Source: Minisyncoccota bacterium
Lineage (GTDB): Bacteria > Patescibacteriota > Minisyncoccia > Phycocordibacterales > JAQTLZ01
NCBI GenBank assembly: GCA_028711065.1
Contig: JAQTSY010000001.1
Coordinates: 22,610-86,609 of the forward strand
Direction: 5' to 3'
DNA: 64,000 nucleotides
Shown: in pieces, positions 3,875-55,423 of the stretch
Numbering within the stretch: position 1 is the first letter of the stretch
Layout: the number at the start of each line of letters is the position of its first letter
Program-made: the position numbers and the translations under genes
Notes under the pieces: generated by a model
The model's database searches: none
What the model was told of the DNA's origin: nothing
The model's input: the letters and a program-made list of their open reading frames with translations, nothing else

Positions 3875-4672
3875 ATGATCGAAGTTAAAAATCTCGTAAA
3901 AAAGTTTGGAAATTTCACCGCTGTGAAAAATGTCAGTTTCGAAGTTAAGAAAGGTGAAATTTTTGCATTTCTGGGTCCCAATGGTGCAGGGAAATCAACT
4001 ACGATAAAAATGCTTACGACCCTCCTTCATCCCACGGAAGGGACGATTCGAATTGACGGAAATAATCCCGTAACACAGGCAAACCAGGTCCGTCACGCCT
4101 TCGGCATCGTCTTTCAAGACCCAAGTCTCGACGATGAGCTTACAGCGTGGGAAAACATGGAATTTCACGGCGTACTGTATGGAATGCCGAAGAAACTTCG
4201 CCGACAAAGAATTGATGAACTTATGGCATTCGTAGAGCTTACTGATCGTAAAGACAGCCTGGTAAAACAATTTTCCGGAGGAATGAAACGCCGGCTTGAA
4301 ATTGCGAGGGGTCTTATTCATCATCCGAAAATCATCTTCTTGGACGAGCCGACCCTCGGTCTTGATCCGCAAACTCGAAATCATATGTGGACGTATCTTC
4401 AGGAATTAAATAAATCTGAAGGTGTTACTATTTTTTTCACCACGCACTACATGGAGGAGGCTGCAAAAGTTGCGCAAAGGATTGCCATTATAGACCACGG
4501 AACCATTGTGGCTTCCGGCACAGCAGATTCCTTAAAAGAACAAACGAGCACCAAATCTCTTGAAGAAGCATTTCTGGCCCTCACAGGAAAGACAATTCGA
4601 GAAGAGGAAGCCGGCGCAGGGGATCATATGCGCCAGATGCGCCAAGTATGGAGAGGGGGAAATAAAAGATAA
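3875..4672 (+). CDS. ABC-2 type transporter ATP-binding protein
   Basis: Walker A 'GPNGAGKST', signature 'FSGGMKRRLEIARGL' and Walker B 'IIFLDEPTLGLD' are present. Confidence 0.9.
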   Translation: MIEVKNLVKKFGNFTAVKNVSFEVKKGEIFAFLGPNGAGKSTTIKMLTTLLHPTEGTIRIDGNNPVTQANQVRHAFGIVFQDPSLDDELTAWENMEFHGVLYGMPKKLRRQRIDELMAFVELTDRKDSLVKQFSGGMKRRLEIARGLIHHPKIIFLDEPTLGLDPQTRNHMWTYLQELNKSEGVTIFFTTHYMEEAAKVAQRIAIIDHGTIVASGTADSLKEQTSTKSLEEAFLALTGKTIREEEAGAGDHMRQMRQVWRGGNKR

Positions 4673-5435: not shown

Positions 5436-6368
5436 ATGGAAAATTCATCGAAGACCTTGAAGGGAAGCGCGCTTGTTGTGTGCGCCGCGCTTCTTTGGGC
5501 GCTCGACGGAGTAATACGAAGAAGTCTTTTCACTCTTCCTCCGATTACCATCATCTTTTTTGAGCATCTTTTCGGCGCCATCATTATTTTACCGTTTGTC
5601 TGGAAAGCGCTTGCCTCCGAACGTCTCCTTGTCCAGGAATGGCTCATGATCATTCTCATATCTCTTTTAAGCGGACTTTTTGGGACACTTTGGTTTACCA
5701 CCGCGCTTCTCAAATCCGGCTTCATCTCATTTAGCGTAGTTTTTTTACTGCAAAAACTTCAACCGATCTTTGCAATCTCCACCGCACGAATATTTCTAAA
5801 GGAAAAACTTACGAAAAAATATATTATTTGGGCTGTGCTGGCTCTGGTGGCTGCCTATTTTGTTACCTTTCCAAAAGGAATAGTAAATTTTTCTACCGGA
5901 AGCGGAACTGTTATCGCCGCTCTCTATGCACTGGGCGCAGCGTTCGCATGGGGTTCATCTACTACTTTTTCTAAAATCGCCCTGAAGAAAAGATCTCATA
6001 GTTATGTTACTGCTGTCCGGTTTTTCATCACAACCCTTCTTGCACTCTGTTTTATGATTATAATTCACCAAACTCCTTCACTCCATTATCCTAGTCTTTC
6101 CCAGTTCGCTCGCTTTGCTCTTATTGCAGTTTCGACAGGAATGCTAGCACTTCTCATCTATTACAAAGGCTTGCAAAAAATTCCGGTAAAGGTTTCTACT
6201 ATTCTTGAGCTCACTTTTCCACTTGTTGCCATTCTCATAGACGCGATTCTTTATCACTCGTTTCTTTCCTTCAGTCAGGCAATTGCAGCAATTGTGTTAA
6301 TTGCGAGTATGTATAAAATATCTACTATAAGAATTTCTGAAAATGAAACTTCTATTCAAAACAACTAG
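5436..6368 (+). CDS. EamA/DMT-family membrane transporter
   Basis: About 10 TM segments arranged as a duplicated EamA-like architecture. Confidence 0.65.
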   Translation: MENSSKTLKGSALVVCAALLWALDGVIRRSLFTLPPITIIFFEHLFGAIIILPFVWKALASERLLVQEWLMIILISLLSGLFGTLWFTTALLKSGFISFSVVFLLQKLQPIFAISTARIFLKEKLTKKYIIWAVLALVAAYFVTFPKGIVNFSTGSGTVIAALYALGAAFAWGSSTTFSKIALKKRSHSYVTAVRFFITTLLALCFMIIIHQTPSLHYPSLSQFARFALIAVSTGMLALLIYYKGLQKIPVKVSTILELTFPLVAILIDAILYHSFLSFSQAIAAIVLIASMYKISTIRISENETSIQNN

Positions 6369-6744: not shown

Positions 6745-9330
6745 ATGTCTCAATTAAGAAAGCGAAACTCGAAGAGTGTACGGCTTTCTAGCCATGTTAT
6801 ACCAGAAAGGTACGAGCTTAGCTTGAAGCCTGATCTCGAGGCTTTTACCTTTGAGGGGCAAGAAGCTATTACTCTTATTCTCAAAAAAGCTACCAAGACG
6901 ATAACGCTTCACTCAAAGAATCTGGAGATAGAATCTGCTGAAGTAGAATTTAGAAAAGAGAAGATCTTTGCTCTTAAAATTTCGTACGATGAGAAGGCAG
7001 AGACTGCTACATTTTTCTTTCAAAATGAAATTCCTAAAGGGAAGCTTAAGCTCGCTTTAGTGTTTCGAGGAGTTTTAAACGATTTAATGCGGGGCTTTTA
7101 TAGAAGTCGCTATGAACACGAGGGGAAGACGAAACACCTCGCTACGACCCAATTTGAGTCAACAGATGCCCGTCAGGCCTTTCCTTGTTTCGATGAGCCA
7201 GCTTTGAAGGCAATTTTCGATATCTCACTTGTCGTTCCGACGAATCTGACAGCCATTTCAAATACCATGCCCTCCAATATCCGGGAGCACGAGGGAGGAT
7301 ACAAAACCGTTACTTTTGAACCCACTCCGAAGATGTCTACCTATCTCGCGGCATTTATTGTTGGAGATTTTGAATCTATTGAAGGAAAAACTGCCCGCGG
7401 AACTCTTGTCCGAATTTTCACCACTCCAGGAAAAATTCATCAAGGAAAATTTGCTTTGGAAGTTGCGAAAAAATCGCTCACGTTTTTTGAAAAATATTTC
7501 GGCATTCATTATCCGCTTCCTGCGCTCGACCTAATCGCCATTCCTGATTTTCAATCAGGGGCAATGGAAAACTGGGGTGCAATTACCTATCGAGAGACTG
7601 CGCTTTTGTATGACGAAGAACATTCAGCCCTCGCTACGAAACAGCGAGTGGCTATTGTGATCGCGCACGAGATCGCTCATCAGTGGTTTGGAAATCTTGT
7701 AACCATGGAATGGTGGACGCATTTATGGTTAAACGAGGGGTTCGCAACGTACATTGAATACCTCGCGGTTGACGCAATGTTCCCAGAGTGGGACATGTGG
7801 ACGCAATTTCTTATCGAAGACCATGGGGTTGCCCTCCAACTTGACGCTCTGGCAAACACTCATCCGATCGAAGTTCCTGTACATCACCCGAACGAAATTA
7901 GTGAAATTTTCGATAAAGTTAGCTATTCAAAAGGAGGAAGTGTGATAAGAATGCTTGCAGAGTATCTTGGAAAAGAAAATTTCCGAAAAGGCCTTTCGCA
8001 TTATTTGAAGAAACACAGCTACGCAAATGCAGAAACTGCTGACCTTTGGAAAGCCCTCGAAAAAGTCTCCGGCAAACCTGTGGCAAAAATAATGCGAGAC
8101 TGGACGGAGCATCCAGGATACCCAGTTCTCCAAGTTTCGCAAGTACAAAGCAAATACAATTTAACCCAATCACGCTTCTTCTCAAGTCCGATTTCGGAAA
8201 GAAAAATGAAAGACAAGACTTTGTGGCATATTCCTGTAATTTCCAAATCGAATAATAAAAGCGGAGTAGATAAAACCATTTCGAATAAAAAAACCTTTGC
8301 AGTTTCGAGAAAAGCCGGTTCAAAGTGGACAAAGATAAATTACGGAGAAACGGGGTTCTTCCGCACCGCATATTCTAAGGAAGCACTTGAGAGTTTCAAG
8401 GAGCCAATTGAAAATAAGACGTTTGGCCCAATTGATCGGCTCGGCATTATCCGAGATGCTTTCGCACTTTTGGAGGCAGGGAAAATCGATGCAGAAAGTG
8501 TGCTAACTCTTTCGGAGAGTTTTAAAAACGAAGATGATTATGCTGTTTGGGGAGAATTGGCATCTGGACTCTCTTCGCTCACCGGAGTTTTGCCAGTAGG
8601 CAAGTTGAAAAATGAATACAAAGAATATGCCGGAAAGATATTTCTAGGAGTTGTTAAAAAATTAGGCTGGGCTAAAAAAGACGAAGAAAAGCACACGGTA
8701 ACACTTTTGCGCTCCCTTGTTCTTGGAAGTGCGGGACTTTACGGGAATAAAGAGGTTATAAAACGAGCACAAAGGCTTTTCCAAGATTTCATAGAAAAAG
8801 GTGCTCCAATTTGCGCGGATATTCGAGGCACTGTATACATGCTCGCAGCTCGTTATGGAGGAAAAAAAGAGCACGAAATTCTCACAGACCTCTACAAGAA
8901 AGAGAAACTTCAGGAAGAAAAAAATCGAATCGGGAGGGCGCTTGCGAATTTCTCGAGTGAAAAACTTATAGAGGAAACCCTCAATTTTGCCCTTTCCAAA
9001 GAAGTGCGAACACAGGATGCTTTTATTCTCATCATTTTGGCTTGGAGAAATCCGTACGGGCAGGAAATAACATGGAAATTTGTGAAAAAACATTGGGGTA
9101 AACTTTTGTCGCGGTACGGGGGAGCCGGAATCATTGCTCACATATTGGAGAGCGCTTCTGTTTTTGCAACAAACGAAAATGCGAAAGAGATCCTGAAATT
9201 TTTCAAAACTCATCCTGCACCTGGCGCGAAAAGAACTTTAGAACAAGCAATCGAGCAAATTTATTCGAATGTTCTCTGGAGAGAAAGGCTTCTGAAAACT
9301 TTGCCGGCATTTTTTAAAAAGAATAAATAA
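6745..9330 (+). CDS. pepN: aminopeptidase N (M1 family zinc metallopeptidase)
   Basis: 'GAMENWG' exopeptidase motif and 'HEIAHQWFGNLVTMEWW...LWLNEGFA' HExxH-(18)-E zinc site. Confidence 0.9.
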   Translation: MSQLRKRNSKSVRLSSHVIPERYELSLKPDLEAFTFEGQEAITLILKKATKTITLHSKNLEIESAEVEFRKEKIFALKISYDEKAETATFFFQNEIPKGKLKLALVFRGVLNDLMRGFYRSRYEHEGKTKHLATTQFESTDARQAFPCFDEPALKAIFDISLVVPTNLTAISNTMPSNIREHEGGYKTVTFEPTPKMSTYLAAFIVGDFESIEGKTARGTLVRIFTTPGKIHQGKFALEVAKKSLTFFEKYFGIHYPLPALDLIAIPDFQSGAMENWGAITYRETALLYDEEHSALATKQRVAIVIAHEIAHQWFGNLVTMEWWTHLWLNEGFATYIEYLAVDAMFPEWDMWTQFLIEDHGVALQLDALANTHPIEVPVHHPNEISEIFDKVSYSKGGSVIRMLAEYLGKENFRKGLSHYLKKHSYANAETADLWKALEKVSGKPVAKIMRDWTEHPGYPVLQVSQVQSKYNLTQSRFFSSPISERKMKDKTLWHIPVISKSNNKSGVDKTISNKKTFAVSRKAGSKWTKINYGETGFFRTAYSKEALESFKEPIENKTFGPIDRLGIIRDAFALLEAGKIDAESVLTLSESFKNEDDYAVWGELASGLSSLTGVLPVGKLKNEYKEYAGKIFLGVVKKLGWAKKDEEKHTVTLLRSLVLGSAGLYGNKEVIKRAQRLFQDFIEKGAPICADIRGTVYMLAARYGGKKEHEILTDLYKKEKLQEEKNRIGRALANFSSEKLIEETLNFALSKEVRTQDAFILIILAWRNPYGQEITWKFVKKHWGKLLSRYGGAGIIAHILESASVFATNENAKEILKFFKTHPAPGAKRTLEQAIEQIYSNVLWRERLLKTLPAFFKKNK

Positions 9331-9335
9331 TTATT

Positions 9336-11078
9336 ATGGAACTTCTCTGGAAATATGTAAAAAAACAAAAATGGCTCCTGGCGGGAACTTTGGCTTTGGC
9401 GACAATAAACCAGGGTTTTTCGCTTTTGGATCCGCAAATTTTTCGAATCATTGTTGATAAATATGCGACCCAGGCGTCGAATTACACCCACTCAGGATTT
9501 CTCCGGGGTGTACTGCTTCTTCTCCTCGCTTCGATCGGCGTCGCGCTTGTGTCGCGAATTGCCAAAAATTTCCAAGATTATTACGCCAACGTAATCACTC
9601 AACGAGTGGGAACCGAAATGTACAGCGAATCCGTTGCTCATACTTTTGCTCTGCCTTACGCTATTTTTGAGGATGAAAGAAGCGGGGAGATGCTCCAGAA
9701 ACTTCAGAAAGCCCGTCTTGATGCTCAAACGCTCATTATGAGCGCTATTGGAAGTATTTTCATCGCACTCGTTGGGATTATTTTTGTGATCATCTACGCT
9801 CTCCATGTGCATTGGTCAGTTGGGCTCGTCTATATTCTCATCATTCCCGTGCTTGGAACGGTGACCTTTACTATTTCGAGGAAGATCAAACAGGCGCAGA
9901 AGAATATTGTCATAGAAACCGCAAATCTTGCTGGTTCGACGACAGAGACGATTCGAAACGTCGAGATGGTGAAAAGTTTGGGACTTGAGGAGCAAGAAAT
10001 CACCCGACTCAATATCGTCAATCAGAAAATTCTCCAATTAGAGCTCAAGAAAATTAAACTGATAAGAACACTAAGCTTCATCCAGGGTACGTGCATCAAC
10101 GCGCTCCGCTCGTCGCTTCAGCTCCTTATGCTTTGGCTCATTTGGAGCTCTGCCATCACGGTCGGAGAATTTTTCAGCCTCTTTATCTACTCATTCTTTA
10201 TTTTCAACCCACTTGGTGATCTCGCAAACGTTTTCGCCCAATTTCAAGAAGCCAGCGCAAGCCTCGCTGCCGTAGCGGAGCTCCTTTCTCGCCAAGTTGC
10301 TCCAATTCCTCTTTCCCCCGTCCGACTCAAATCACTTGAATCAATTGAATTTAAAAATGTAGATTTTGCTTACTCGGGAGCTCGAGGTTCGGCTGTTTCG
10401 GGGATTAACTTAAAAATACATGTCGGAGAAACGGTCGCTTTCGTGGGCCCTTCTGGTTCCGGCAAATCGACTCTTGTAAAACTTGTGCTTGGCCTTTACC
10501 AGCCGGAGAAAGGTTCTCTTTCATTCAATACTGTAAATGCGTCCAAGATCGATTTCGAGGCATTGCGAAGCCGTGTCGGGCTTGTTGCGCAGGAGACCCA
10601 GCTTTTTTCAGGAACGATTCGAGATAATCTTTTATTCGTGAAAACTGACGCTACAGATGAAGAGTGTCTTTTAGCGCTTTCTTTTGCTCAAGCCACAACA
10701 ATTTTAGAGAGGAGCGGGCAAGGACTCGATACAAAGATCGGCGAAGGAGGAGTGAAAGTTTCAGGAGGAGAACGCCAGCGTCTCGCTATTGCTCGAGCCC
10801 TTCTTCGAAAACCGGAACTTATTATTTTCGATGAAGCGACTTCGAGCCTTGATTCAATCACCGAAAAAGAAATTACAGACACTATTCAAAGCGTTGAAAT
10901 CGCAGCAAAAGGTGTGATGCAAATTCTAGTTGCTCACAGACTTTCGACAATTGCCCACGCGAAAAGAATTTACGTGCTGGAGAAAGGCAAAATCATCGAA
11001 GAAGGGACGCACGAATCACTCCTTAAGAAAAAAGGGTTATATGCTGCTTTGTGGAGAGAGCAGTCGCCGATGAGTTAG
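9336..11078 (+). CDS. ABC exporter, fused permease/ATPase (MsbA-like type I exporter)
   Basis: An N-terminal 6-TM domain is followed by Walker A 'GPSGSGKST', signature 'VSGGERQRLAIARAL' and Walker B 'IIFDEATSSLD'. Confidence 0.9.
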   Translation: MELLWKYVKKQKWLLAGTLALATINQGFSLLDPQIFRIIVDKYATQASNYTHSGFLRGVLLLLLASIGVALVSRIAKNFQDYYANVITQRVGTEMYSESVAHTFALPYAIFEDERSGEMLQKLQKARLDAQTLIMSAIGSIFIALVGIIFVIIYALHVHWSVGLVYILIIPVLGTVTFTISRKIKQAQKNIVIETANLAGSTTETIRNVEMVKSLGLEEQEITRLNIVNQKILQLELKKIKLIRTLSFIQGTCINALRSSLQLLMLWLIWSSAITVGEFFSLFIYSFFIFNPLGDLANVFAQFQEASASLAAVAELLSRQVAPIPLSPVRLKSLESIEFKNVDFAYSGARGSAVSGINLKIHVGETVAFVGPSGSGKSTLVKLVLGLYQPEKGSLSFNTVNASKIDFEALRSRVGLVAQETQLFSGTIRDNLLFVKTDATDEECLLALSFAQATTILERSGQGLDTKIGEGGVKVSGGERQRLAIARALLRKPELIIFDEATSSLDSITEKEITDTIQSVEIAAKGVMQILVAHRLSTIAHAKRIYVLEKGKIIEEGTHESLLKKKGLYAALWREQSPMS

Positions 11079-11308
11079 AGACTAAGAGCTTTCCTAAGTT
11101 CAGGCTCGTTGAAGCCAACGATAATTTTTCCTCCTATATCGATAACAGGAACTCCCATTTGTCCTGATTTTTCAACAGCTTCTTTTCGCGCTGCCATATC
11201 ACTCGCAGCATTTTTATCGGTAAATTTTACGCCGTTGGCAGTAAAAAAATCTTTTGCCATGTGGCAGAAGTGGCAGGTCGGAGTTGAATAGATTATTACG
11301 TCTTTCAT
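11075..11308 (-). CDS. glutaredoxin-like protein (thioredoxin fold, CxxC)
   Basis: 'YSTPTCHFCHMAKDFF' CxxC motif near the N-terminus in a 77-aa protein. Convergent with the ABC exporter and overlaps its stop by 4 nt. Start chosen at the internal Met 'MKDVIIY'. Confidence 0.7.
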   Translation of the reverse strand: MKDVIIYSTPTCHFCHMAKDFFTANGVKFTDKNAASDMAARKEAVEKSGQMGVPVIDIGGKIIVGFNEPELRKALSL

Positions 11309-11451
11309 AGAAGTTTGAGATAAGATTAGTAAAAGAGTACTCATTATATCAGACAATTTTTAAGACACAAAATTTTTGCCATAACCACTCGCATTCCCGC
11401 CATTTCGGTATATAATGTCTGCCTATAATTAATCAATTAATCCTTCATTTT

Positions 11452-12738
11452 ATGGCTAATTCACCGTTCAACAACTACCTCGTGAGGCTGAAGAGCGCCT
11501 CAACCCTTTTGGGCCTTTCGAACAAGGAATTCAAGACTCTTTCGACTCCTAATAACGTCTTCGAAAAGGAGATCGAAATTGAGCGCGATAATGGCCAGAT
11601 CGAGAGTTTAAAAGCTTATCGAGTTCAGTTTAATAATGCTCGCGGTCCTTATAAAGGCGGTATTCGTTTTCATCCGAAAGCAAATTTGAATGAAGTAAAA
11701 GCGCTCGCTTTGGGCATGGCGGTGAAATGCGCAGTTGTGGGAATTCCGATGGGAGGAGGCAAGGGAGGAGTTGAATTTGATCCAAAGCAGTACTCTCCAA
11801 AAGAAATCGAGGCAATTTCGCGCGCTTGGATGCGAGCGTTCGCCGAACACGTCGGAAGCAAGAAAGATATTCCAGCACCAGATGTCTACACGAACGGCGC
11901 CATTATGTCTTTCATGCTCGATGAATATGAAAAAATTGTTGGTTACAGCGATCCCGGAATGATCACGGGCAAACCGCTTTCTCTTGGTGGAAGTTTGGGA
12001 CGAGACACTGCAACAGCTCAAGGGGGCGTGTATATTTTGGAGGAGCTTGTAAACACACTTGGCTTAAGACGAAAAGATCTGCGTGTGGCAGTGCAGGGAT
12101 TTGGAAACGCGGGATATCATGCGGCATCAATTTTACACGGACTTGGCTACAGAATTGTGGGCCTTTCTGACAGCAAGGGGGGAATTTGGAGCGCACGGGG
12201 ACTTGATCCAGAGGAAGTGAATGCTGTGAAAGAGGAGCGTAACGCCGTTACTGAATTTTATTGCAAAGGCACAGTGTGCGATATGGATAAACTTATGCAC
12301 GATGAAGCAAAAATCTACAGCGAAAAAGATTTCGTAACATGTCCGTGCGATATTCTGATTCCTGCTGCCCTCGACAATGCAATTGACGCGAAAAACGCAA
12401 AAAATGTCAAAGCGAAAATTATTTTGGAACTTGCAAATGACCCGACAACACCCGAAGCGGATCTCATTTTGGCCAAAAAGCGAGCGATCATTGTACCGGA
12501 TGTTTTGGCAAACGCCGGGGGAGTAACGGTTTCCTATTTCGAGTGGGCGCAAAACATTACGGGACAAAGATGGACTGAAGAAGAAGTAAGGGACAAGCTG
12601 AAGCCGATCATGCTCAAAGCTTTTGAAAGCGTCTGGCGGCTTTCAAAAGAGAAAAAGTTGACCCTTCGCAACTCTGCCTATTTTGTGGCAGTAGAAAAAA
12701 TTGCCACCGCAATGCGAGATAGAGGCTCGTTTTTGTGA
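11452..12738 (+). CDS. gdh: glutamate dehydrogenase (Glu/Leu/Phe/Val dehydrogenase family)
   Basis: 'KGGIRFHP' and 'PMGGGKGG' GDH signatures, plus 'GFGNAGYH' Rossmann motif. Confidence 0.9.
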   Translation: MANSPFNNYLVRLKSASTLLGLSNKEFKTLSTPNNVFEKEIEIERDNGQIESLKAYRVQFNNARGPYKGGIRFHPKANLNEVKALALGMAVKCAVVGIPMGGGKGGVEFDPKQYSPKEIEAISRAWMRAFAEHVGSKKDIPAPDVYTNGAIMSFMLDEYEKIVGYSDPGMITGKPLSLGGSLGRDTATAQGGVYILEELVNTLGLRRKDLRVAVQGFGNAGYHAASILHGLGYRIVGLSDSKGGIWSARGLDPEEVNAVKEERNAVTEFYCKGTVCDMDKLMHDEAKIYSEKDFVTCPCDILIPAALDNAIDAKNAKNVKAKIILELANDPTTPEADLILAKKRAIIVPDVLANAGGVTVSYFEWAQNITGQRWTEEEVRDKLKPIMLKAFESVWRLSKEKKLTLRNSAYFVAVEKIATAMRDRGSFL

Positions 12739-12750
12739 TAGTATGGGTTT

Positions 12751-13443
12751 ATGAGCACCGACCGAAAAGTCGCCATTTTTGATGTAGACGGAACGATATT
12801 TCGTTCCAGCCTTCTTATCGAATTGGTGGAAATAATGATCGAATATGGGCTTTTTCAGGAGTCTGTGCGGGCAGATTACGAACGAGAGCGTTTGCACTGG
12901 CTTGAGAGAAAAGGGGATTACGAAGCCTATATTCAGGCCATCATAAAAGTTTTTGTCGCAAATATTAAAGGCGTTTCTTATAAAGAATTTGACGACGCTT
13001 GTACAGAAGTAGTCGCTCGGCACAAAGACAAAAATTATCGCTTTACCCGAGACCTCATCAAAGATTTGAAAAAGAAAGGTTACTACCTTCTTGCCATCTC
13101 GCAGTCTCCCAAAACAATTCTCGATAAGTTTTGCATTCCGCTCGGATTTGATAAAGTGTATGGCAGGATTTATGAGACCGGGCCTTCGGACAAATTGACT
13201 GGTGCGGTAACGGACGAACATCTCATAAGCAATAAGGCAAACATCGTGCGCAGGGCGGTACTCAAAGAAAATCTGACCCTCGAAAATTCTGTCGGAGTTG
13301 GAGACACCGAAAGTGATATCCCGTTTTTGGAAATGGTGGCTAAACCAATATGTTTTAATCCAAATTCCATGCTTTGGAAGCAGGCGAAGCGCTCTAAATG
13401 GCGAGTCGTTGTGGAAAGAAAGGATGTCGTATACGAAATATAA
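12751..13443 (+). CDS. HAD-superfamily hydrolase (subfamily IB, phosphoserine-phosphatase-like)
   Basis: 'IFDVDGTIF' HAD motif I (DxDGT) and a C-terminal 'GVGDTESDIPFL' motif III. Confidence 0.75.
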   Translation: MSTDRKVAIFDVDGTIFRSSLLIELVEIMIEYGLFQESVRADYERERLHWLERKGDYEAYIQAIIKVFVANIKGVSYKEFDDACTEVVARHKDKNYRFTRDLIKDLKKKGYYLLAISQSPKTILDKFCIPLGFDKVYGRIYETGPSDKLTGAVTDEHLISNKANIVRRAVLKENLTLENSVGVGDTESDIPFLEMVAKPICFNPNSMLWKQAKRSKWRVVVERKDVVYEI

Positions 13444-13485
13444 ACACAAGAAATTGTCACGTACTAAAATTTTTAACGTTATTCT

Positions 13486-14067
13486 ATGAGACGCACCGAT
13501 GATGAAAATACTCGAACGCTGTTAGAGGAGGCGAAGAAAGGCGATAAACATGCTTTTGAAGAAGTGTACCGCCTTTTCTTTACGCCAGTCTATCGATATG
13601 TCTATCTTCGGGTAAAAGACAAGAAGCTCGTTGAGATGCTTACCCAAGATGTTTTCATAAAAGTATATAGTTCGCTCGGCCAGTTTCAATCTAAAGGAGC
13701 ATCTCCACTTTCGTATTTCTTTACAGTCGCGAGAAACACGATCATCGATCATTGGCGAAAAGACAGAAATAAAATTTCGTTCGGAAAGGAAGATCTTATG
13801 CTGGTAGTTCCGGATACTGCCGATAATCCCGAGCAATCGTACGAAAAACAAGAAACAAAGGCTCTTTTGTATAAGGCGGTGAATATGCTAAAGCAAGATG
13901 AGCGGGAAGCCATTTCAATGCGATATTTAAACGAAATTCCTAATAAAGAGATCGCGAAACATATGGAAAGAACGGAAGAATCAGTGCGACAGCTTCAGTC
14001 GAGGGGGCTTAAATCACTTCGGGTGATCCTTCTTGAGCTTTCTCGGGGTAGCGAAGATAAAAAATAA
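13486..14067 (+). CDS. RNA polymerase sigma factor, ECF (sigma-70 family regions 2 and 4)
   Basis: Region 2 'FEEVYRLFFTPVYRYVYLRV...ARNTIIDHWRK' and region 4 'EREAISMRYLNEIPNKEIAKHMERTEESVRQLQSRGLKSLR'. Confidence 0.8.
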   Translation: MRRTDDENTRTLLEEAKKGDKHAFEEVYRLFFTPVYRYVYLRVKDKKLVEMLTQDVFIKVYSSLGQFQSKGASPLSYFFTVARNTIIDHWRKDRNKISFGKEDLMLVVPDTADNPEQSYEKQETKALLYKAVNMLKQDEREAISMRYLNEIPNKEIAKHMERTEESVRQLQSRGLKSLRVILLELSRGSEDKK

Positions 14068-14071
14068 TTCT

Positions 14072-15379
14072 ATGCCAGCTCCTAAAAAAGAAATTGACGA
14101 AAATCTAATAGCAAAAGCCCTCGAAATGCACGAGGCGGGCAAAGTGAATCAGGAGATCATCTCTCGGCTTGTTCCAAACGGAAATAAAGAGGAACTGGAA
14201 GAGATCCTTGAATGTTTGGCCTGGGTAGAAAATGAAGGGAAAAGCATTTCACCCTCTCCGCTTCTTCTGCGCACCATTTTGGCTCACGTACCTCATGCAG
14301 AGAAAGTCGCCGCTGCGACAGAGGTTCCTCCCATTTCTGACGAAGGTCTAAAGAAAAAAATAAAAGAGCGGCCTATTTTCGACATTTCTAAATTGAAAGA
14401 CACCTTCTTGAATAAAAAAATCTTTCTGCCTGTTGGTGCGGTGGCCGTTGTCCTCTTTCTTTTTCTTATTTTAAAACCTGGAAGTGCCCCGACTACAACC
14501 ACCACGCTTCCTTCTTCCGAAGCCACGCAAGCTTTTCTCACAAAATCCTCAATTGAAAATCCCGTAACCATAGATGAAATCTTCAGTGACTTGGACAAGG
14601 AAACAGAAGATGAGTTGAGCGGTGTGACGGCAACAGTAGACGCAATGACTCCAGTTCCTGCGGCGGCTCTTTTAGATACGAGTGCAATTGTAAACAAAAA
14701 TGAGACAGATAAAGGAGTTTGTGAGCGAATTTCAACCGCAAGCGCCGATGCTGATACGCAAATTACTGGGAGACAGACAAAGTTCGAAACTGCATATAAT
14801 TTCGAACTGCAAAAACTGGAACAAAAACTGGCAAGCACAACTCAAGAATTAAATGATAAAAGAGATACTGCAAAAGCGTCCTTTGCCTCTCAAGTGCTTT
14901 CGTTTTCAGATGCGGCCTCAACAACCGAACAAAAACAAGCAATTTCTGACTTTCAACAAGCAGTGGAAAAAGCTCGCGCGACGCGCCTTGTTTCTGTAGA
15001 TGCAGCAGTTAAAATTTTTGGAGATGCAGTGGCGAGTTCGACTGACGCAAAGAAAACTGCGACCCTAACAGCACTTCAAAGTTTTCAAACCTCTGTACAA
15101 CGGGCCTTTCAGAAAGCAGAGTCAGATTGCGTAAGTTCAATTCCGAAAGATACTACGCAATCAAATCTCATAAAAACCCTTAATAGCGCAGAGGCTACGC
15201 TTAAAGCAAACCAAACTTCTCTCTCTAAGACAGCTCCCGTTTTCGACGTCCTCGTGAAAACGCGTAGAGATTCGATATTGAGAGCGTTTTCTGGCTACAA
15301 ACTTTCTCTTCGAAAAATGAAAGCTGACTTACGGCTCGTATTTCCTGTTCCGAAGAAATCCACAGCCCCATCCATCTAG
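14072..15379 (+). CDS. candidate anti-sigma factor (single-pass membrane protein with Ala/Thr/Ser-rich extracytoplasmic domain)
   Basis: The start lies 4 nt after the ECF sigma stop, suggesting translational coupling. The protein has a ~115-aa N-terminal cytoplasmic segment, one TM helix 'IFLPVGAVAVVLFLFLIL', and a ~300-aa low-complexity C-terminal domain. Confidence 0.4.
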   Translation: MPAPKKEIDENLIAKALEMHEAGKVNQEIISRLVPNGNKEELEEILECLAWVENEGKSISPSPLLLRTILAHVPHAEKVAAATEVPPISDEGLKKKIKERPIFDISKLKDTFLNKKIFLPVGAVAVVLFLFLILKPGSAPTTTTTLPSSEATQAFLTKSSIENPVTIDEIFSDLDKETEDELSGVTATVDAMTPVPAAALLDTSAIVNKNETDKGVCERISTASADADTQITGRQTKFETAYNFELQKLEQKLASTTQELNDKRDTAKASFASQVLSFSDAASTTEQKQAISDFQQAVEKARATRLVSVDAAVKIFGDAVASSTDAKKTATLTALQSFQTSVQRAFQKAESDCVSSIPKDTTQSNLIKTLNSAEATLKANQTSLSKTAPVFDVLVKTRRDSILRAFSGYKLSLRKMKADLRLVFPVPKKSTAPSI

Positions 15380-15406
15380 GAAAAAGCGGTAGGGTATAAT
15401 AGACCC

Positions 15407-16285
15407 ATGCAGAATTCCCTCGGGGTTCTTTTGTCGGTATCAACACTTCTTCTTTGGAGCGTTGGCGATTTTTATATACAAAAATCAACTCGCCTTGTTG
15501 GCATTTGGAAATCTCTTTTCTTCATAAGTTTCTTCGGAATGGTATTAGAGCTTCCTTTTGTGTGGGTCGAGGTACAAAAGATTTTTTTAAGCCCTCAAAG
15601 CCTTATCCTTCTTGTTGTTCTCGGATTATCGATATTTCTTGCCGCTTTACTCGATTTTGAGGCCCTGAAACGAGGGAAAATTGCGGTTGTCGAGCCCGTA
15701 TTCGGGCTCGGAATTCCTTTCACTGTTTTTCTCGCAGTTGTCTCTGGTCATGATATTTTAAGCCTCACCCAAAGTCTTCTGATCGGTGCTATTTTCATCG
15801 GAATCATTCTTTCAGTTGTAGTAAAAGGTTCTTTTCGTTACGATCGAATTATTTGGGAAAAAGGCGTGTTCATTGCAATTCTCGGAACTTTAGCAATGGC
15901 TCTTACGAATTTTCTAACAGGAATTGGAAGCCAGCTCATCTCTCCGCTTATGACGATCTGGTTTATCAACTTTTTCCTCACTATCACGACATTTGTGTAC
16001 CTTTTCGCGAAAGGGGAATGGAGAAGCTTGCCAAACGACCTGCGAAGGCACTCGAAAGTTATTCTCGAAGAAAGCCTTTTCGACAACATTGCTTGGCTCT
16101 CGTACGCTTTTGCAATGACGCTCATCCCTATAAGCATTTCAACCTCAATAGCTGAGAGCTATATTGTGATGGCCGTTCTTCTCGGTGTCTCTGTGAATAA
16201 AGAAACGCTGAATCGCCACCAAGTGCTTGGCGTTATTCTCGCAGTTCTCGGAGTAATCTCGCTCTCGCTTACCGTAACTGGCTGA
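15407..16285 (+). CDS. EamA/DMT-family membrane protein
   Basis: 10-TM polytopic protein with EamA-like repeat architecture. Confidence 0.6.
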   Translation: MQNSLGVLLSVSTLLLWSVGDFYIQKSTRLVGIWKSLFFISFFGMVLELPFVWVEVQKIFLSPQSLILLVVLGLSIFLAALLDFEALKRGKIAVVEPVFGLGIPFTVFLAVVSGHDILSLTQSLLIGAIFIGIILSVVVKGSFRYDRIIWEKGVFIAILGTLAMALTNFLTGIGSQLISPLMTIWFINFFLTITTFVYLFAKGEWRSLPNDLRRHSKVILEESLFDNIAWLSYAFAMTLIPISISTSIAESYIVMAVLLGVSVNKETLNRHQVLGVILAVLGVISLSLTVTG

Positions 16286-16286
16286 T

Positions 16287-16931
16287 ATGTTGCGCATAAT
16301 TCTCGCATCGCTCGGATTTCTCCTCATCCTTCTTGTTTCAGAAGCTTGCAAGAAGCATTTTCATTTTTCAGCGGATATAACACGGAAGATCGCCCATATG
16401 TTTTCGGGCGTCTTTGCTTTTTTTCTGCCGTATCTCCTAACCAGGGGGGAACTTATTGTTCTGTCAGTTTTATTTATCGGAATTATTTTTGGCACAAAAA
16501 CTTTCGGATTATTCGGAAGCATCCACGGAGTATCCCGCAAAACGTGGGGCGAAATCTATTTCCCGCTTTCTCTGGGACTTTTAGCATATTTTTTTCTTCC
16601 CGATCGCGTACTTTCAGCACAATTTGGGGTACTAGTGCTTGGATTTTCTGATGCGTTGGCGAGCATCGTTGGGATAGAGTTTGGCTCTCATAAGCTGCGG
16701 ATTTTCGGGCACCAGAAAAGTATCGAAGGAAGTGCCGCCTTTTTTGTCACAACAATCGTCATTACCATCGCCTTTCTTACTCCAACCTCTTTTTTGATAA
16801 TTATTGCCGGACTTTTTGTGGCATTTCTCCTGACTTCGGTTGAACTTTTCTCGATAAACGGTCTTGATAATCTCCTTTTGCCAGTTTTGGGAGCATACTT
16901 GTTTCAATACATCTTACTTGCTTTGAGGTAG
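16287..16931 (+). CDS. CTP_transf_1-family membrane protein (dolichol/phytol kinase or CdsA-like)
   Basis: Polytopic protein carrying 'DALASIVGIEFGSHKLRIFGHQKSIEGSAAF', which resembles the cytidylyltransferase-family K-[ST]-x-EG-[ST] motif. Confidence 0.45.
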   Translation: MLRIILASLGFLLILLVSEACKKHFHFSADITRKIAHMFSGVFAFFLPYLLTRGELIVLSVLFIGIIFGTKTFGLFGSIHGVSRKTWGEIYFPLSLGLLAYFFLPDRVLSAQFGVLVLGFSDALASIVGIEFGSHKLRIFGHQKSIEGSAAFFVTTIVITIAFLTPTSFLIIIAGLFVAFLLTSVELFSINGLDNLLLPVLGAYLFQYILLALR

Positions 16932-16992
16932 TTCCAGAGCTAAAATAGAAGGATAGAGCTTATTAGAAGGCTTTCTTAACTATTTAGAGCGT

Positions 16993-17376
16993 ATGGATTT
17001 ACTATTTCTTTTTGGGCGGATCCTTTTTGGAGGTTTCTTCCTTTATAGCGGAATTAAACATTTTACTAGAGTAAATGCATTTTCTGCCTATGCTGGGAGC
17101 AAGCATGTTCCAAGTCCGAAAGTTTCGGTTTATGCTACCGGAGTACTTATCTTTCTGGGGGGAGCGGGAGTTGTTTTGGGTATTTCCCCAGTCTGGTCGC
17201 TCATATTTATCATCCTTTTTCTTGTGCCCGTGACCTTTATCATGCATCAATTCTGGAAGGAAACAGACCCAATGCAAAGAGCCGTACAGACCACGAACTT
17301 TCTCAAAAATATCGCCCTTCTTGGGGCAGCGCTTATGCTCCTCTCTGTCGCAACTCCTTGGCCGTTTTCGTTCTAG
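16993..17376 (+). CDS. DoxX-family membrane protein
   Basis: 'LFGRILFGGFFLYSGIKHF' DoxX N-terminal motif and four TM helices. Confidence 0.7.
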   Translation: MDLLFLFGRILFGGFFLYSGIKHFTRVNAFSAYAGSKHVPSPKVSVYATGVLIFLGGAGVVLGISPVWSLIFIILFLVPVTFIMHQFWKETDPMQRAVQTTNFLKNIALLGAALMLLSVATPWPFSF

Positions 17377-17400
17377 GAATTCCTTACCACGCAAGCAAGC

Positions 17401-17575
17401 CCCACACCTTTTGGGAAACTCACTGGGCTCTGTGCAGCGGAAAGGAGCTTTTCCGGAAAACTGAACTGTCTGAGCCTCGCCCCACAGGCGGGCGAGTTTT
17501 CACGTTTTCCGAAATAGAAAAGCTCCTATTCCGCAATCAGAGAACCAGTGGCAGCTGTTTTCCAAAAGGTGTGGG
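17401..17575. ncRNA. candidate structured ncRNA (~175-nt extended hairpin; family unassigned)
   Basis: ORF-poor convergent intergenic region. A perfect 14-bp closing helix pairs 17401-17414 with 17562-17575. Inside it, 17437-17461 pairs with 17504-17534 (25 bp with one bulge), 'cactgg' 17421-26 pairs with 'ccagtg' 17545-50, and an apical hairpin 'ctcgccc/gggcgag' is followed by 'tttt'. Strand undetermined. Confidence 0.45.
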
Positions 17576-17584
17576 CGAGTAACT

Positions 17585-18280
17585 TTACTGACCCCTTAGA
17601 TGGGCTTTTTTAATGATCTCTATGATCTCGTCTTCATTATCCGTAATACTATAGATGAGGAGATCCTCGGGGCGAATTGTTCCGTATTTATCTAAAAGTG
17701 TGGCTCGAAAAAGTTTTTCCATTGGTTGCCAGTATTCTGCGCCAAACAATACGATCGGTACCGGCGAAATTTTGTGTGTCTGTCGCAGAGTCAGTATCTC
17801 GAAGAATTCATCGAGGGTGCCGAAACCCCCAGGAAAGAAGACGCAGCATTTTGCCGTAAAGGCAAGAATAAATCGCCGGATAAAGAAATAATAGAAATCG
17901 ACAGAGTCGGTAACGTACTGATTGGTCACCTGTTCATGAGGAAGTTTGATAGTAATGCCTATTGAGTTTCCGTTCGCTTCTTTTGCTCCTCTATTCGCTG
18001 CTTCCATAATTCCGGGACCTCCGCCGGTAATGACCGCGCATTGCGTCTGTTCGACAATTTTTCTTCCCAAAGCGCGGGCTTTCTCGTAAAACACTGTCCC
18101 TTCTTGTATTTTTGTCCCGCCGTATATTGTTACTGCTTTAGGATATTGAGCGACAAATTCAAAGCCCCGCAAGAATTCACTGTCGATTTCAGACACGCGG
18201 TCTTTCGCTGTGACGTGAGCGTGGTGTTTGATCTTATCAATAAAAGAAATCAGTGCTTCGCTGTGATTATCTGTATTCAT
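17585..18280 (-). CDS. LOG-family protein (cytokinin riboside 5'-monophosphate phosphoribohydrolase-like, TIGR00730)
   Basis: 'GGGPGIMEAANRGA' and 'PGGFGTLDEFFE' LOG signatures. Confidence 0.8.
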   Translation of the reverse strand: MNTDNHSEALISFIDKIKHHAHVTAKDRVSEIDSEFLRGFEFVAQYPKAVTIYGGTKIQEGTVFYEKARALGRKIVEQTQCAVITGGGPGIMEAANRGAKEANGNSIGITIKLPHEQVTNQYVTDSVDFYYFFIRRFILAFTAKCCVFFPGGFGTLDEFFEILTLRQTHKISPVPIVLFGAEYWQPMEKLFRATLLDKYGTIRPEDLLIYSITDNEDEIIEIIKKAHLRGQ

Positions 18281-18367
18281 TGGGCTCTATTTTATCAAGG
18301 AAAGTCGAAAATGTCCCGCGCCTTCAGCTGGACATCTTTCGACATGATTTTTGTGTGTCAAAAATCA

Positions 18368-22755: not shown

Positions 22756-24783
22756 ATGAAAACAGAAAGGAAATTTAAACTTAAATCGGAATTCAAACCT
22801 GCCGGTGATCAACCGGGAGCTATTTCTGCACTCGTAAAAGGACTCAAGGAGGGAATGAATCATCAAACTCTTCTTGGGGTTACCGGTTCAGGAAAAACTT
22901 TTACTGTCGCCAATATTATTGAAAAAGTTCAGAAACCAACGCTTGTTATCGCTCACAACAAAACTCTTGCCGCCCAGCTCGCTCAAGAATATAAAGAATT
23001 TTTCCCAGACAACGCTGTGCATTATTTCGTTTCGTATTACGACTACTATCAGCCGGAAGCATATTTACCAACTACTGATACTTATATCGAAAAGGAAGCG
23101 ATGATAAATGACGAAATTGATCGTCTTCGCCATGCATCTACACAGGCACTTCTGACGCGCAGTGATGTGATTATTGTAGTTTCTGTCTCATGTATTTACG
23201 GGTTGGGTTCACCTGTTGAATACGAGAAAGTAAATTTAAAGATCGAAAAAAACCAGGTTATTTCGCGCGCAGATTTGATTCGAAAACTGGTAAATCTCCA
23301 TTTTGAACGCACCAATGCAGACCTTGAGCCGGGACTTTTCAGAGCGCTTGGAAATGCGATTGAAATGATGCCGGTCAATGAGAAACTTATCTATCGCTTA
23401 AGTTTCAAAGAAAGTGTCATCGACGAGATTGAAGTCATTGACGCAATCAGCCGTTCAGTTCTCGAAAACGTAGACAATTTTTTCCTTTTCCCGGCAAAAC
23501 ATTTCATCAGCACCTCCGAAGGAGTAAAAAGCGCCCTCCAAACCATCGAAGCCGAACTCAAAGAGCAGATCAAAAAATTCGATAAGGAGGGGAAACTTCT
23601 CGAAGCCGAGAGAATAAAACGCCGAACAAGATACGACCTCGCTCTGATTCGTGAAGTTGGCTACTGCAACGGAATTGAAAACTATTCTCGGCATTTCTCG
23701 GGAAAAATAGAGGGCGAACCACCAGATTCACTTCTTTCCTATTTCCCGCACAAAGCAGATGGTTCGGCAGACTTTCTCACTATCATAGACGAATCGCACG
23801 TAACTGTGCCCCAAATTGGAGGGATGTATGCTGGAGACGCTTCACGAAAGAAGACTTTGATCGAGCACGGCTTTCGGCTTCCTTCCGCGAAAGACAATCG
23901 TCCACTCAAAGCCGAAGAATTTCGAGAAAGAGTGGGGCAAGTAATTTATACTTCAGCAACTCCTGGAGAATATGAAAAGAAAGAGAGCCAGCAAGTGGTG
24001 GAGCAAGTCATTCGTCCGACAGGTCTTATTGATCCTGAAATAATCATCCGCCCAATCGTTTCGAAGGGGAAATTCCTTGGACAGGTCAAAGATTTTATTA
24101 ACGAGGCTGAAGCAGTGATAAAAAGAGGAAACCGTGTCATAGCCACAACACTTACCAAAAAAATGGCGGAAGATTTGAGCGAGTATCTCAAAGAGCGCGG
24201 AGTGAAAGCTGAATACTTGCATAGCGATATCGAAACGCTTGATCGCATTAGAATTCTTACAGAATTTCGAAAAGGGAAATTTGACTGCATTGTCGGTGTA
24301 AATCTTCTTCGCGAAGGGCTTGATCTGCCGGAAGTTGAGCTCATCGGAATTCTTGATGCCGACAAAGAGGGCTTTTTGCGTTCTGAAACCTCGCTTATTC
24401 AAACCATCGGCCGTGCAGCGCGAAATGTGCTTGGCCACGTGATTCTTTATGCCGACAACATGACCGGCTCAATGGAGAGAGCGATAAGCGAGACCAATCG
24501 GCGCCGCGCTCTTCAGGTCGCTTATAATACGAAACACGGCATTACTCCAAAAACCATTCTCAAGAAAATTCATGATATTACCGAGACAATGGAGAACAAA
24601 CATTCGAAAACGCTCAAAAATCTGATTGAGCTCGATGATAAATTCTTCAAGAAAAATCCTGCAAAATTCATTAAAGAAAAAGAGAAGCAGATGAATGCTG
24701 CGGTAAAAGTGCTTGATTTCGAGACCGCGGCACTCCTTCGGGATGAAATTGCCATGCTTCAGCTCTCCCTACGGGAGCGGTAA
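22756..24783 (+). CDS. uvrB: excinuclease ABC subunit B
   Basis: 'GVTGSGKTFT' Walker A, helicase motifs, 'DESHVTVPQ', and a C-terminal UVR domain 'AAVKVLDFETAALLRDEIAMLQ'. Confidence 0.95.
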   Translation: MKTERKFKLKSEFKPAGDQPGAISALVKGLKEGMNHQTLLGVTGSGKTFTVANIIEKVQKPTLVIAHNKTLAAQLAQEYKEFFPDNAVHYFVSYYDYYQPEAYLPTTDTYIEKEAMINDEIDRLRHASTQALLTRSDVIIVVSVSCIYGLGSPVEYEKVNLKIEKNQVISRADLIRKLVNLHFERTNADLEPGLFRALGNAIEMMPVNEKLIYRLSFKESVIDEIEVIDAISRSVLENVDNFFLFPAKHFISTSEGVKSALQTIEAELKEQIKKFDKEGKLLEAERIKRRTRYDLALIREVGYCNGIENYSRHFSGKIEGEPPDSLLSYFPHKADGSADFLTIIDESHVTVPQIGGMYAGDASRKKTLIEHGFRLPSAKDNRPLKAEEFRERVGQVIYTSATPGEYEKKESQQVVEQVIRPTGLIDPEIIIRPIVSKGKFLGQVKDFINEAEAVIKRGNRVIATTLTKKMAEDLSEYLKERGVKAEYLHSDIETLDRIRILTEFRKGKFDCIVGVNLLREGLDLPEVELIGILDADKEGFLRSETSLIQTIGRAARNVLGHVILYADNMTGSMERAISETNRRRALQVAYNTKHGITPKTILKKIHDITETMENKHSKTLKNLIELDDKFFKKNPAKFIKEKEKQMNAAVKVLDFETAALLRDEIAMLQLSLRER

Positions 24784-24820
24784 ACCTTTTGCATTCTGAG
24801 AGCAGAACGCTCAAGGTCTT

Positions 24821-24849
24821 GCTAAATGGGTCCCAACCCATTTCTCACC
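24821..24849. repeat. palindromic motif, copy A (core gggtcccaaccca)
   Basis: 'taaatgggt-ccca-acccattt' hairpin 40 nt after the uvrB stop. It is about 26/29 identical to copy B at 26066-26097 when B is read in inverted orientation. Confidence 0.5.
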
Positions 24850-24886
24850 ATAGCGAAGAAAATGGCCAAATGATAGAATTATTCCC

Positions 24887-31894: not shown

Positions 31895-31965
31895 AAAGTA
31901 TAAGAGTCGACCCTTACAGGGTCAGTACCCCGATTGGTCCGTCAGTAGACGGAGCTCAATCGGGC

Positions 31966-32063
31966 TTCGACTCTCCTGCATGAGCAATCCCCATTGCTCA
32001 TTCGGGTCCACAAATCGAAAACCGCCTTTCGGCGGTCGATTTGTGGACCCGAGGAGAGTCGAA
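31966..32063. repeat. 28-bp inverted repeat duplicating tRNA-Ala nt 50-73 plus 8 nt of trailer, with a 25-bp hairpin insertion in the left copy
   Basis: Left arm 31966-31977 + 32003-32018 ('ttcgactctcct' ... 'cgggtccacaaatcga') is the exact reverse complement of 32036-32063. The arms surround the terminator hairpin 'ccgcc-tttc-ggcgg'. The inserted 25 nt form 'gagcaat-cccc-attgctc'. Confidence 0.6.
32010..32035 (-). terminator. intrinsic terminator of the tRNA-Ala transcript (also usable for ddl on the + strand)
   Basis: On the minus strand the tRNA trailer 'caaatcga' is followed by 'ccgcc-gaaa-ggcgg' and 'ttttcgatttg'. Confidence 0.6.
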
Positions 32064-32116
32064 CTCCTGACCTTTGCTTTGCAAAAGCACTGCTCTACCA
32101 GCTGAGCTACGGGCCC
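32044..32116 (-). tRNA. tRNA-Ala (anticodon UGC)
   Basis: Minus-strand sequence GGGCCCGTAGCTCAGCTGGTAGAGCAGTGCTTTTGCAAAGCAAAGGTCAGGAGTTCGACTCTCCTCGGGTCCA folds as a 73-nt cloverleaf. It has the G3:U70 Ala identity pair, anticodon loop tTTGCAa, a T-loop TTCGACT and discriminator A. CCA is not encoded. Confidence 0.85.
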
Positions 32117-55075: not shown

Positions 55076-55297
55076 ATGCTCAAAGAATTTTTCCTAAAAA
55101 AGATGCTTCAAAGCAAGATGAAAGATGTGCCAGCCGCCGAACAAGAGAAAATTTTAATGTTAGTAGAGAAAAATCCAGAACTCTTCCAGAAAATTACGCT
55201 TGAAGTGCAAGAAAAAATAAAAGAAGGAAAAGACCAGATGTCCGCGACGATGGAAGTCGTGGGGCGCTACCAAGAAGAATTGAAGGGGTTGATGTAA
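55076..55297 (+). CDS. small hypothetical protein (73 aa, helical, Lys/Glu-rich)
   Basis: The ORF-track start at 55040 is a TTG; an internal ATG at 55076 is preferred. No motif recognised. Confidence 0.3.
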   Translation: MLKEFFLKKMLQSKMKDVPAAEQEKILMLVEKNPELFQKITLEVQEKIKEGKDQMSATMEVVGRYQEELKGLM

Positions 55298-55339
55298 GAG
55301 GCGTCTTCATCCTTCCTTGACTTAAACAATAAATAGTGC

Positions 55340-55423
55340 TATAACATCTCGAGAATTCTTTGAGATGTTATATCGCCGCAACTAAAAAAAGCCGATATAT
55401 TTCAGCTTTTTTTAGTTGCGGCG
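55340..55423. repeat. two adjacent perfect palindromes (11-bp and 19-bp stems)
   Basis: 55340-55372: 'tataacatctc-gagaattcttt-gagatgttata'. 55374-55423: 'cgccgcaactaaaaaaagc-cgatatatttca-gctttttttagttgcggcg'. They lie at the left border of a GC-rich island. Confidence 0.6.

Follow-up and report, generated by a model that had tools for sequence, protein, structure and literature searches.

The gap between the convergent genes doxX and LOG in a 64-kb stretch of DNA from a Minisyncoccota bacterium (contig JAQTSY010000001.1) is occupied by a single long hairpin, which we read, at roughly even odds, as a lineage-specific and selectively maintained RNA structure that took over the terminator position in a shared 3' gap and most likely does the terminator's job. 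The whole stretch that was analysed is referred to here as the window, all coordinates follow its numbering unless a contig is named, and the contigs of related loci that were compared with it are labelled L001-L032. By sequence comparison, the hairpin appears to belong to no described family.

Structure of the doxX-LOG hairpin

The doxX-LOG gap measures 208 nt, and the hairpin proper extends from G17399 to C17576, comprising 178 nt and 72 pairs. When 17391-17585 is folded with RNAfold, the + strand forms one long hairpin of -102.4 kcal/mol (z = -10.7), compared with a mean of -58.7 for 200 dinucleotide shuffles, none of which (0/200) is as stable. The - strand of the same segment folds with -96.8 kcal/mol (z = -8.5). 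The pairs of the + strand consist of 40 GC, 29 AU and 3 GU, and there is no GU pair on the - strand. In a scan of the minimum free energy (MFE) of 200-nt segments across the whole window, this hairpin is one of only three outliers, the other two being located at 31881-32080 and 55241-55480.

Alignment of one arm with the reverse complement of the other reveals 70 matches, 9 mismatches and six small indels (~80% identity), therefore the structure is an irregular helix and not the perfect foldback that assembly errors give. Internal loops measure at most 4 x 3 nt and no bulge exceeds 5 nt, both in the MFE and in the centroid structure. Pairing is nested over the full length, and the outermost arms (17401-17419 and 17557-17575) are 95% complementary, an arrangement of inverted-repeat ends as in a miniature inverted-repeat transposable element (MITE). 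Every pairing listed by the first-pass annotation is present in the sequence, and so is the GC hairpin followed by a T tract that it had described at the apex (17476-17508), and its view that the hairpin far exceeds a simple terminator is supported.

The same site in related genomes

By its LOG protein, the window belongs to a Candidatus Pacebacteria MAG (metagenome-assembled genome). Gene order is kept across the contigs that carry LOG or DoxX homologues, and consists of EamA, a 214-aa gene, DoxX, LOG (convergent), RluB and TGT. In five relatives (L002, L003, L004, L031 and L032) the doxX-LOG gap is 47-55 nt long and contains a classical bidirectional intrinsic terminator of ~30-35 nt, built of an A-run, an 11-17 bp stem that includes paired A/U runs, and a T-run, which folds with -16 to -20 kcal/mol in both directions. 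In a sixth relative (L029), doxX and LOG abut. The element is absent from the syntenic site in all six of these genomes, and no homologue was found in the parts of them that were searched. Two MAGs, L026 and L027, which are identical in sequence here, have a 344-nt gap with a clear homologue of the window element. The site is thus polymorphic for presence and absence, being filled in the window and in L026/L027, with an intact terminator-only gap in five relatives. As to conservation in related genomes, by which the first-pass annotation proposed to judge a structured RNA, the outcome is divided: one sister species carries the element, and it is absent from all the others.

The amino-acid identity between the window and L026 is 95.5% for EamA, 90.2% for the 214-aa protein, 88.7% for LOG and 96.7% for RluB, and identities over five genes place L026 closest to the window, L002 next, and L003 and L004 as outgroups. 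The idea that L002 (85% LOG identity) is the nearest relative, which would have made the distribution of the element phylogenetically discordant, was overturned by these five-gene identities, and L026 is the sister. In the simplest history suggested by these comparisons, the element would have arisen once, in the common ancestor of the window and L026 species, at the place of the ancestral terminator.

Conservation and substitution pattern

The flanking genes of the window and L026 are 72-88% identical at the DNA level, and 233 of 424 4-fold degenerate sites in them are identical (55%; doxX excluded). By comparison, the left block of the gap (17377-17428) is identical at 50 of 52 positions, with differences only at 17391 and 17397 and complete identity over 17398-17428, and in the right block (17447-17584) 129 of 138 positions are the same. 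The two blocks combined are identical at 179 of 190 positions (94%), which gives a binomial p = 1e-33 versus the 4-fold rate, and the high identity begins and ends at the two stop codons. Between the blocks, L026 has 154 nt in place of the 18 nt that the window has at 17429-17446. The apex hairpin and its U tract are kept in L026, where only two loop bases differ.

Three of the 11 differences lie at paired positions whose partner is kept, six are unpaired, and two are opposite the segment that is replaced in L026. All three paired-site differences (17461, 17523 and 17561) are exchanges between C-G and U.G, none of them disruptive; such changes leave the + strand paired and would put A.C mismatches into the - strand. 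Paired positions differ less often (3/116) than unpaired ones (6/60; Fisher one-sided p = 0.043). In addition, the + strand folds 7-15 kcal/mol more stably than the - strand in the window (-102 vs -95 kcal/mol), in L026 (-139 vs -125) and in a hairpin element of L004 that is described below (-92 vs -79). The substitution pattern and the strand bias, thin evidence made up of few events, favour a structure that has been selected in the doxX-sense RNA.

The DoxX protein itself is 72% identical between the window (16993-17376) and L026 (10001-10384), compared with 89-97% for its neighbours, and the identity of doxX DNA falls to 50-60% around 17020-17140. This low identity points to fast evolution or to allele replacement by recombination in one lineage.

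A putative oversized terminator and 3'-end protector

A scan detected no other terminator in the 208-nt gap, and since no small terminator is left there, the hairpin most likely does that job. A scan for sigma-70-like promoters upstream of the hairpin found none, which fits a location in a 3' untranslated region (UTR). The apex resembles an intrinsic terminator on the + strand only, with a GC-rich stem of ~7-8 bp followed by UUUUCACGUUUU, and the sequence directly after the apex (17497-17508) reads ttttcacgtttt. From the structure, its excess over shuffled sequence, its position, distribution, conservation and substitution pattern, which are all observed, we infer that the hairpin is transcribed, that it terminates transcription and that it stabilises RNA. 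In doxX transcripts, the apex GC hairpin and its U tract would end part of transcription, and the RNA that reads through would fold into the full 72-bp stem, which would block 3'-exonucleases and thereby stabilise the message. LOG transcripts, in turn, would form the mirror-image stem (~-96 kcal/mol), limiting antisense transcription into doxX. The structure most likely originated in an insertion or in a palindrome-building event. In E. coli, repetitive extragenic palindromic (REP) elements are reported to serve as partial terminators and mRNA stabilisers, including at sites between convergent genes (bioRxiv 10.64898/2026.03.23.713779).

Several observations weigh against this interpretation. 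The U tract at the apex is interrupted, with 4 T in the first 8 tail bases, and a consensus scan, which needs 5 T in 8, makes no call there. On neither strand is the full stem followed by a U tract, and a canonical terminator is lacking on the - strand. Efficient termination at the apex would, moreover, leave the right arm untranscribed. The uninterrupted 72-bp helix is not essential, because the sister copy lacks much of the middle stem and is nevertheless conserved elsewhere. Within the hairpin alone, the contrast between paired and unpaired positions is not significant (p = 0.15), and the strand and covariation evidence amounts to three substitutions in two species. Furthermore, identities of 88-100% are also seen between the window and L026 in other intergenic regions, except for one at 62%, and judged by such identities the element is as constrained as promoter-bearing spacers and not exceptional. 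When window 7019-17428 is aligned with L026 1-10436, most spacers show 88-100% identity and the 4-fold sites of the flanking genes 35-65%; by this measure, the constraint on non-coding DNA seems to exceed that on synonymous sites in these small genomes.

Coding potential and RNA families

The first-pass annotation had seen no credible open reading frame (ORF) in the gap, and this holds: a 74-aa ORF that spans the gap begins within doxX. The 61 aa encoded by the element have no 5-residue word in common with any of 5.8 billion proteins, and a protein-coding reading was rejected; ORFs over the homologous elements are likewise missing from the protein collection, save for one orphan.

That annotation had also compared the overall shape to 6S or signal recognition particle (SRP) RNA. 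The long irregular hairpin shape and the size of ~180 nt stand, but the family assignment finds no support: the gap has no Rfam match at E < 10 on either strand, including 6S (RF00013 and relatives) and SRP, nor does the L026 homologue at the same threshold. The Bacteria_small_SRP model, with its domain IV loops and GNRA tetraloop, gave no match at E < 10, and a large central bubble of the 6S type is present neither in the MFE nor in the centroid structure. With Rfam 15 at the gathering score, a tRNA-Ala is the single match in the whole window, and it is also the only match at E < 10 when the two other strongly folding regions and the site of module A (see below) are searched. Retrons, integron attC sites, IS200/IS605 ends, Y RNA and single-strand plasmid origins were weighed and set aside, as no partner gene lies near and their motifs are absent.

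Copy number and insertion signatures

The hairpin was not recovered a second time by find_repeats or blastn-short within the window, nor by blastn, nhmmer and covariance-model searches that covered the window and ~77 kb of related loci, and a covariance model of its inner hairpin (H5) found no further copy in the window and 66 kb of related loci. The end sequence does not occur a second time in the window, and blastn of the hairpin against phage and plasmid collections returned nothing similar. The 19-mer CCCACACCTTTTGGRAAAC, which fits both arms, has no match in IMG/VR, 5 isolated matches in GTDB species genomes and 15 isolated matches in JGI metagenomes, in a scan that is a weak probe, being limited to exact matches and to collections in which the source MAG and its sister are seemingly not included. 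None of these matches extended past ~27 nt, and they were taken for chance matches. A multi-copy repeat was therefore rejected, there being no second copy in the window or the related loci and only chance matches of the 19-mer; similarly, the several dispersed copies by which a MITE is recognised were not seen within the window and the related loci. The tetranucleotides that flank the element are CAAG (17396-17399) and CGAG (17576-17579) in the window, and CGAG on both sides in L026, with no empty site similar enough to fix the junctions.

Structured modules A and B

The 154-nt block that L026 carries within its hairpin copy contains two modules, A and B, which are both also found elsewhere. 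Module A (~63 nt) is located at 10450-10512 in L026, at 9036-9098 in L004 and at the 3' end of uvrB in the window, and a diverged second window copy adjoins tRNA-Ala (Table 1). It forms two hairpins, the first of which has a GA/GA internal loop that is invariant in three copies, and the second of which covaries. In four copies from different intergenic contexts, 98.5% of cells pair and 11 of 17 pairs are changed on both sides, which none of 500 shuffles equals, with the caveat that the alignment was fitted to the model of the module, which flatters pairing numbers. Module A matches no Rfam family, and may represent an RNA motif that has not been described before or else form the core of a small mobile element. 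An 18-mer of it has one match in IMG/VR, which lies in a phage coding region and was dismissed as chance.

Module B, which also consists of two hairpins, is found in the window between rluB and LOG, and in L026 inside the hairpin copy. When read from these two sequences, its first stem (gtcgaaaatgtcc/ggacatctttcgac vs gtcagaaattttt/aaaaatcttctgac) has 13 pairs and an identical bulged C in both copies, even though five pairs have undergone compensatory changes. The rluB-LOG gap is 87 nt long in the window, compared with 20-45 nt in relatives. At the other site, a block of ~95 nt replaces the last nine codons of uvrB and gives a new stop (vs L026, L003 and L004), so that the uvrB-hisKA spacer measures 103 nt instead of 15 nt. 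In the sister species, the sites at uvrB and at rluB-LOG are both empty. Both module sites of the window are therefore insertions relative to the relatives, which indicates that small structured modules have been gained and lost at intergenic sites in this clade. Over the ~20 kb compared, each species has one A and one B, in different places: both are inside the hairpin in L026, and they are 7 kb (A) and 0.8 kb (B) away from it in the window. Local cut-and-paste movement would explain this placement.

In L004, positions 8958-9185 form a hairpin of ~228 nt (-92 kcal/mol) upstream of rluB, where the genes on either side diverge. Module A is contained in this hairpin, and a further 12-bp inverted repeat (ttacgaaaccct/agggtttcgtaa) surrounds it. 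The hairpin is annotated as a 66-aa orphan gene, and the gap upstream of rluB measures 334 nt in L004 versus 107-169 nt in L003 and L026. Its arms seemed by eye to be homologous to those of the window hairpin, with apparent compensatory changes, an idea that was rejected since shuffles gave p ~0.13-0.15 without module A and nhmmer found no match. On these comparisons the two hairpins seem to have their architecture in common, and homology is not claimed. A ~72-nt terminator-like hairpin is, in addition, repeated in two intergenic regions of L004 that are 1.6 kb apart (4132-4201 and 5744-5815; 83% identity). It has the form gcccag..gcaagac..ctgggc with an A-rich run before it, and has the 8-mer GCAAGACC in common with the start of module A.

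One tentative synthesis is that the hairpin and modules A and B represent a hitherto undescribed class of mobile elements in candidate-phyla-radiation bacteria, small and structured and encoding no protein. Such elements would nest in the hairpins of terminators, of a tRNA 3' end or of one another, and would move locally. We regard this as possible, with the chances well below even.

Alternative explanations

The hairpin might instead be what is left, without a function of its own, of a palindromic, non-autonomous mobile element of the MITE kind that inserted at the former terminator, in which case the pairing would simply reflect its inverted repeats. The clean empty sites and the presence/absence polymorphism among relatives are what such an insertion would leave, the arms look like terminal inverted repeats, the CAAG/CGAG and CGAG/CGAG flanks resemble a direct repeat, the size and shape are near those of ERIC/RU-1 (127 bp) and YPAL/RU-2 (168 bp) (PMC2759123), and the clade does gain small structured modules at new sites, namely the uvrB 3' end and the rluB-LOG gap. 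However, no second copy exists in the window or the ~77 kb of related loci, phage and plasmid collections hold no match, and no transposase is encoded nearby, while the occurrence of the same tetranucleotide at unrelated sites is unlike random target duplication. The 94% identity against 55% at neutral sites, without a single pair-breaking change, argues against neutral decay, and we consider a mere remnant unlikely. A separate gene for a small RNA that acts in trans, with a long irregular and protein-binding hairpin comparable to 6S or Y RNA as its product, would account for a strong, constrained structure with a + strand bias and for the conservation of unpaired positions as well (54/60), but it is hard to reconcile with the lack of an Rfam match at E < 10, of a central bubble and of a promoter-like site, and with a terminator-like hairpin in the middle of the RNA. 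Furthermore, relatives whose LOG identity is 85% or lower lack the element, and the sister copy has 154 nt in place of 18 nt of one arm. Given its absence from the other relatives and the tolerance of the 154-nt block, a recent cis-acting 3'-UTR or terminator structure fits better than a housekeeping trans-acting non-coding RNA, which we regard as improbable.

A role at the DNA level seems, if anything, more doubtful still: the palindrome could act as a cruciform or single-strand hairpin at which modules A and B would land or recombine, or it could be the product of palindrome extension by template switching around the terminator. Module A does lie inside long hairpins both in L026 and, at a different locus and with a different hairpin, in L004; CGAG is found at the borders of the element and, in L026, at those of the nested block as well; an inverted tRNA-Ala copy around a terminator hairpin shows that this genome makes inverted duplications of flanking DNA; and G.T wobble pairs stabilise single-strand DNA hairpins too. 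Nevertheless, no recombinase or transposase was identified, the L004 hairpin has arms without significant similarity to those of the window, and the six indels between the arms suggest that any duplication is old, yet pairing has been kept, so that such a role accounts better for the origin of the hairpin than for its continued conservation. Finally, a foldback chimera created during assembly can practically be discarded. It is true that two Logan contigs (L001 and L028) end inside the left arm, with breaks at 17427, but the arms are imperfect (80% identity, with indels), the same sequence is present in independent assemblies, the NCBI MAG and Logan sample SRR22315509, and homologues occur in two further MAGs. 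The window species and its sister co-occur in SRR22315509 and have an exact 31-mer in common (17398-17428). Logan assemblies are built with k = 31, and the contig breaks are explained because a 31-mer common to both species would branch the assembly graph at that k. The contig ends were for the same reason rejected as a sign of a repeat, as both contigs stop at this 31-mer.

Features of the locus and other strong hairpins

Table 1. Position of the doxX-LOG hairpin, its segments, the adjoining genes and the structured modules in the window
Feature	Coordinates	Strand	Remarks
doxX, 127 aa	16993..17376	+	ORF with Pfam DoxX; orthologues at all syntenic loci; hairpin in the doxX 3' untranslated region
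Unpaired left flank, doxX stop to hairpin	17377..17398	+	
Outer stem, left arm gccccacaccttttgggaaactcactgggc	17399..17428	+	Partner 17544-17576
Middle stem, left arm tctgtgcagcggaaagga	17429..17446	+	Partner 17523-17543; sole part not common with the sister species
Inner hairpin H5, stem gcttttccggaaaac / gttttccg..gaaaagc around the apex	17447..17522	+	
Apex GC hairpin ctcgcccc-acagg-cgggcgag (17476-17496, ~-13 kcal/mol), then U tract	17476..17508	+	
Right arms of the middle and outer stems ctcctattccgcaatcagag aaccagtggcagctgttttccaaaaggtgtgggc	17523..17576	+	
LOG / TIGR00730-family gene, 231 aa	17585..18280	-	Stop codon 8 nt from the hairpin base
Module B, two hairpins, between rluB and LOG	18304..18367	+	~64 nt; homologue in L026 10525-10587, inside the hairpin copy
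Insertion of ~95 nt in the uvrB 3' end	24762..24856	-	Module A at 24762-24824 plus an extra hairpin
Diverged second window copy of module A, adjoining tRNA-Ala	31907..31970	-	Covariance model, 31 bits, E ~1e-6, full model length

The second outlier of the folding scan corresponds to a strongly folding region at 31895-32060 (-103 kcal/mol, z = -7.9), downstream of tRNA-Ala (32043-32116, - strand). It contains a terminator-like ccgcc-gaaa-ggcgg followed by tttt, which is lengthened by a 17-bp perfect inverted repeat and by further pairing, and within it the acceptor/T-arm 3' sequence of this same tRNA recurs as an inverted copy, broken by a 23-nt hairpin. The diverged copy of module A comes directly after it, and neither ARAGORN nor Rfam calls a tmRNA at 31895-32060. 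At 55340-55425, two hairpins with stems of 13 bp and 25 bp follow an ORF that ends at 55297. The 25-bp stem has an A-run/T-run bidirectional terminator as its core, which a GC-rich stem (atcgccgcaact/agttgcggcgat) lengthens outwards, and is another oversized terminator-like hairpin of the same genome.

Significance and comparison with known systems

Candidate-phyla-radiation bacteria have tiny, tightly packed genomes, and almost nothing is known about their non-coding elements, terminators and small mobile DNA. At the doxX-LOG locus, a canonical bidirectional terminator has been swapped, within a narrow clade, for a hairpin that is several-fold larger and was then kept by selection. If the modules are truly mobile, this group would have its first described system of MITE-like elements or mobile RNA motifs, and the modules would offer a handle on the evolution of 3'-end signals in streamlined genomes; if they are not, the locus nevertheless provides a clear case of terminator turnover in nature.

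Among known elements, the hairpin has the overall long irregular shape and the ~180-nt length of 6S and SRP RNA, but differs from them in having no covariance-model match, central bubble, SRP domain IV motifs or promoter, and in lacking conservation among close relatives. Bidirectional intrinsic terminators occupy the same position and presumably do the same job, and the apex GC hairpin followed by U residues on the + strand resembles them, whereas the 72-bp hairpin far exceeds their ~11-17 bp and lacks both the A-run/T-run symmetry and a U tract after the full stem. Like REP elements and bacterial interspersed mosaic elements (BIMEs), the hairpin is an extragenic palindrome at gene 3' ends, and REP locations also vary between strains (bioRxiv 10.64898/2026.03.23.713779). 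In contrast, REPs are 20-40 nt long, are present in hundreds of copies and carry GTAG/CGTC tags (PMC3733652), while the hairpin has 178 nt, one known copy at one known locus, and no GTAG or CGTC tag at its ends. The enterobacterial elements ERIC/RU-1 (127 bp) and YPAL/RU-2 (168 bp) are MITE-like imperfect palindromes (PMC2759123; PMC2267715), which are similar in length, form one long hairpin, are intergenic, and are insertion-polymorphic between related genomes. They differ in being multi-copy families of Enterobacteria, with no sequence similarity to the hairpin, for which no second copy was found. The role in termination and stability that is proposed here resembles the one discussed for these long ERIC/YPAL palindromes (PMC2759123, PMC2267715). 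By analogy, the hairpin would thus join a familiar class of large extragenic palindromes that lie at the 3' ends of genes and contribute to termination and to the stability of RNA, and what would be more unusual than the hairpin itself is the presence of insertion-polymorphic, covarying structured modules in a candidate-phyla-radiation lineage.

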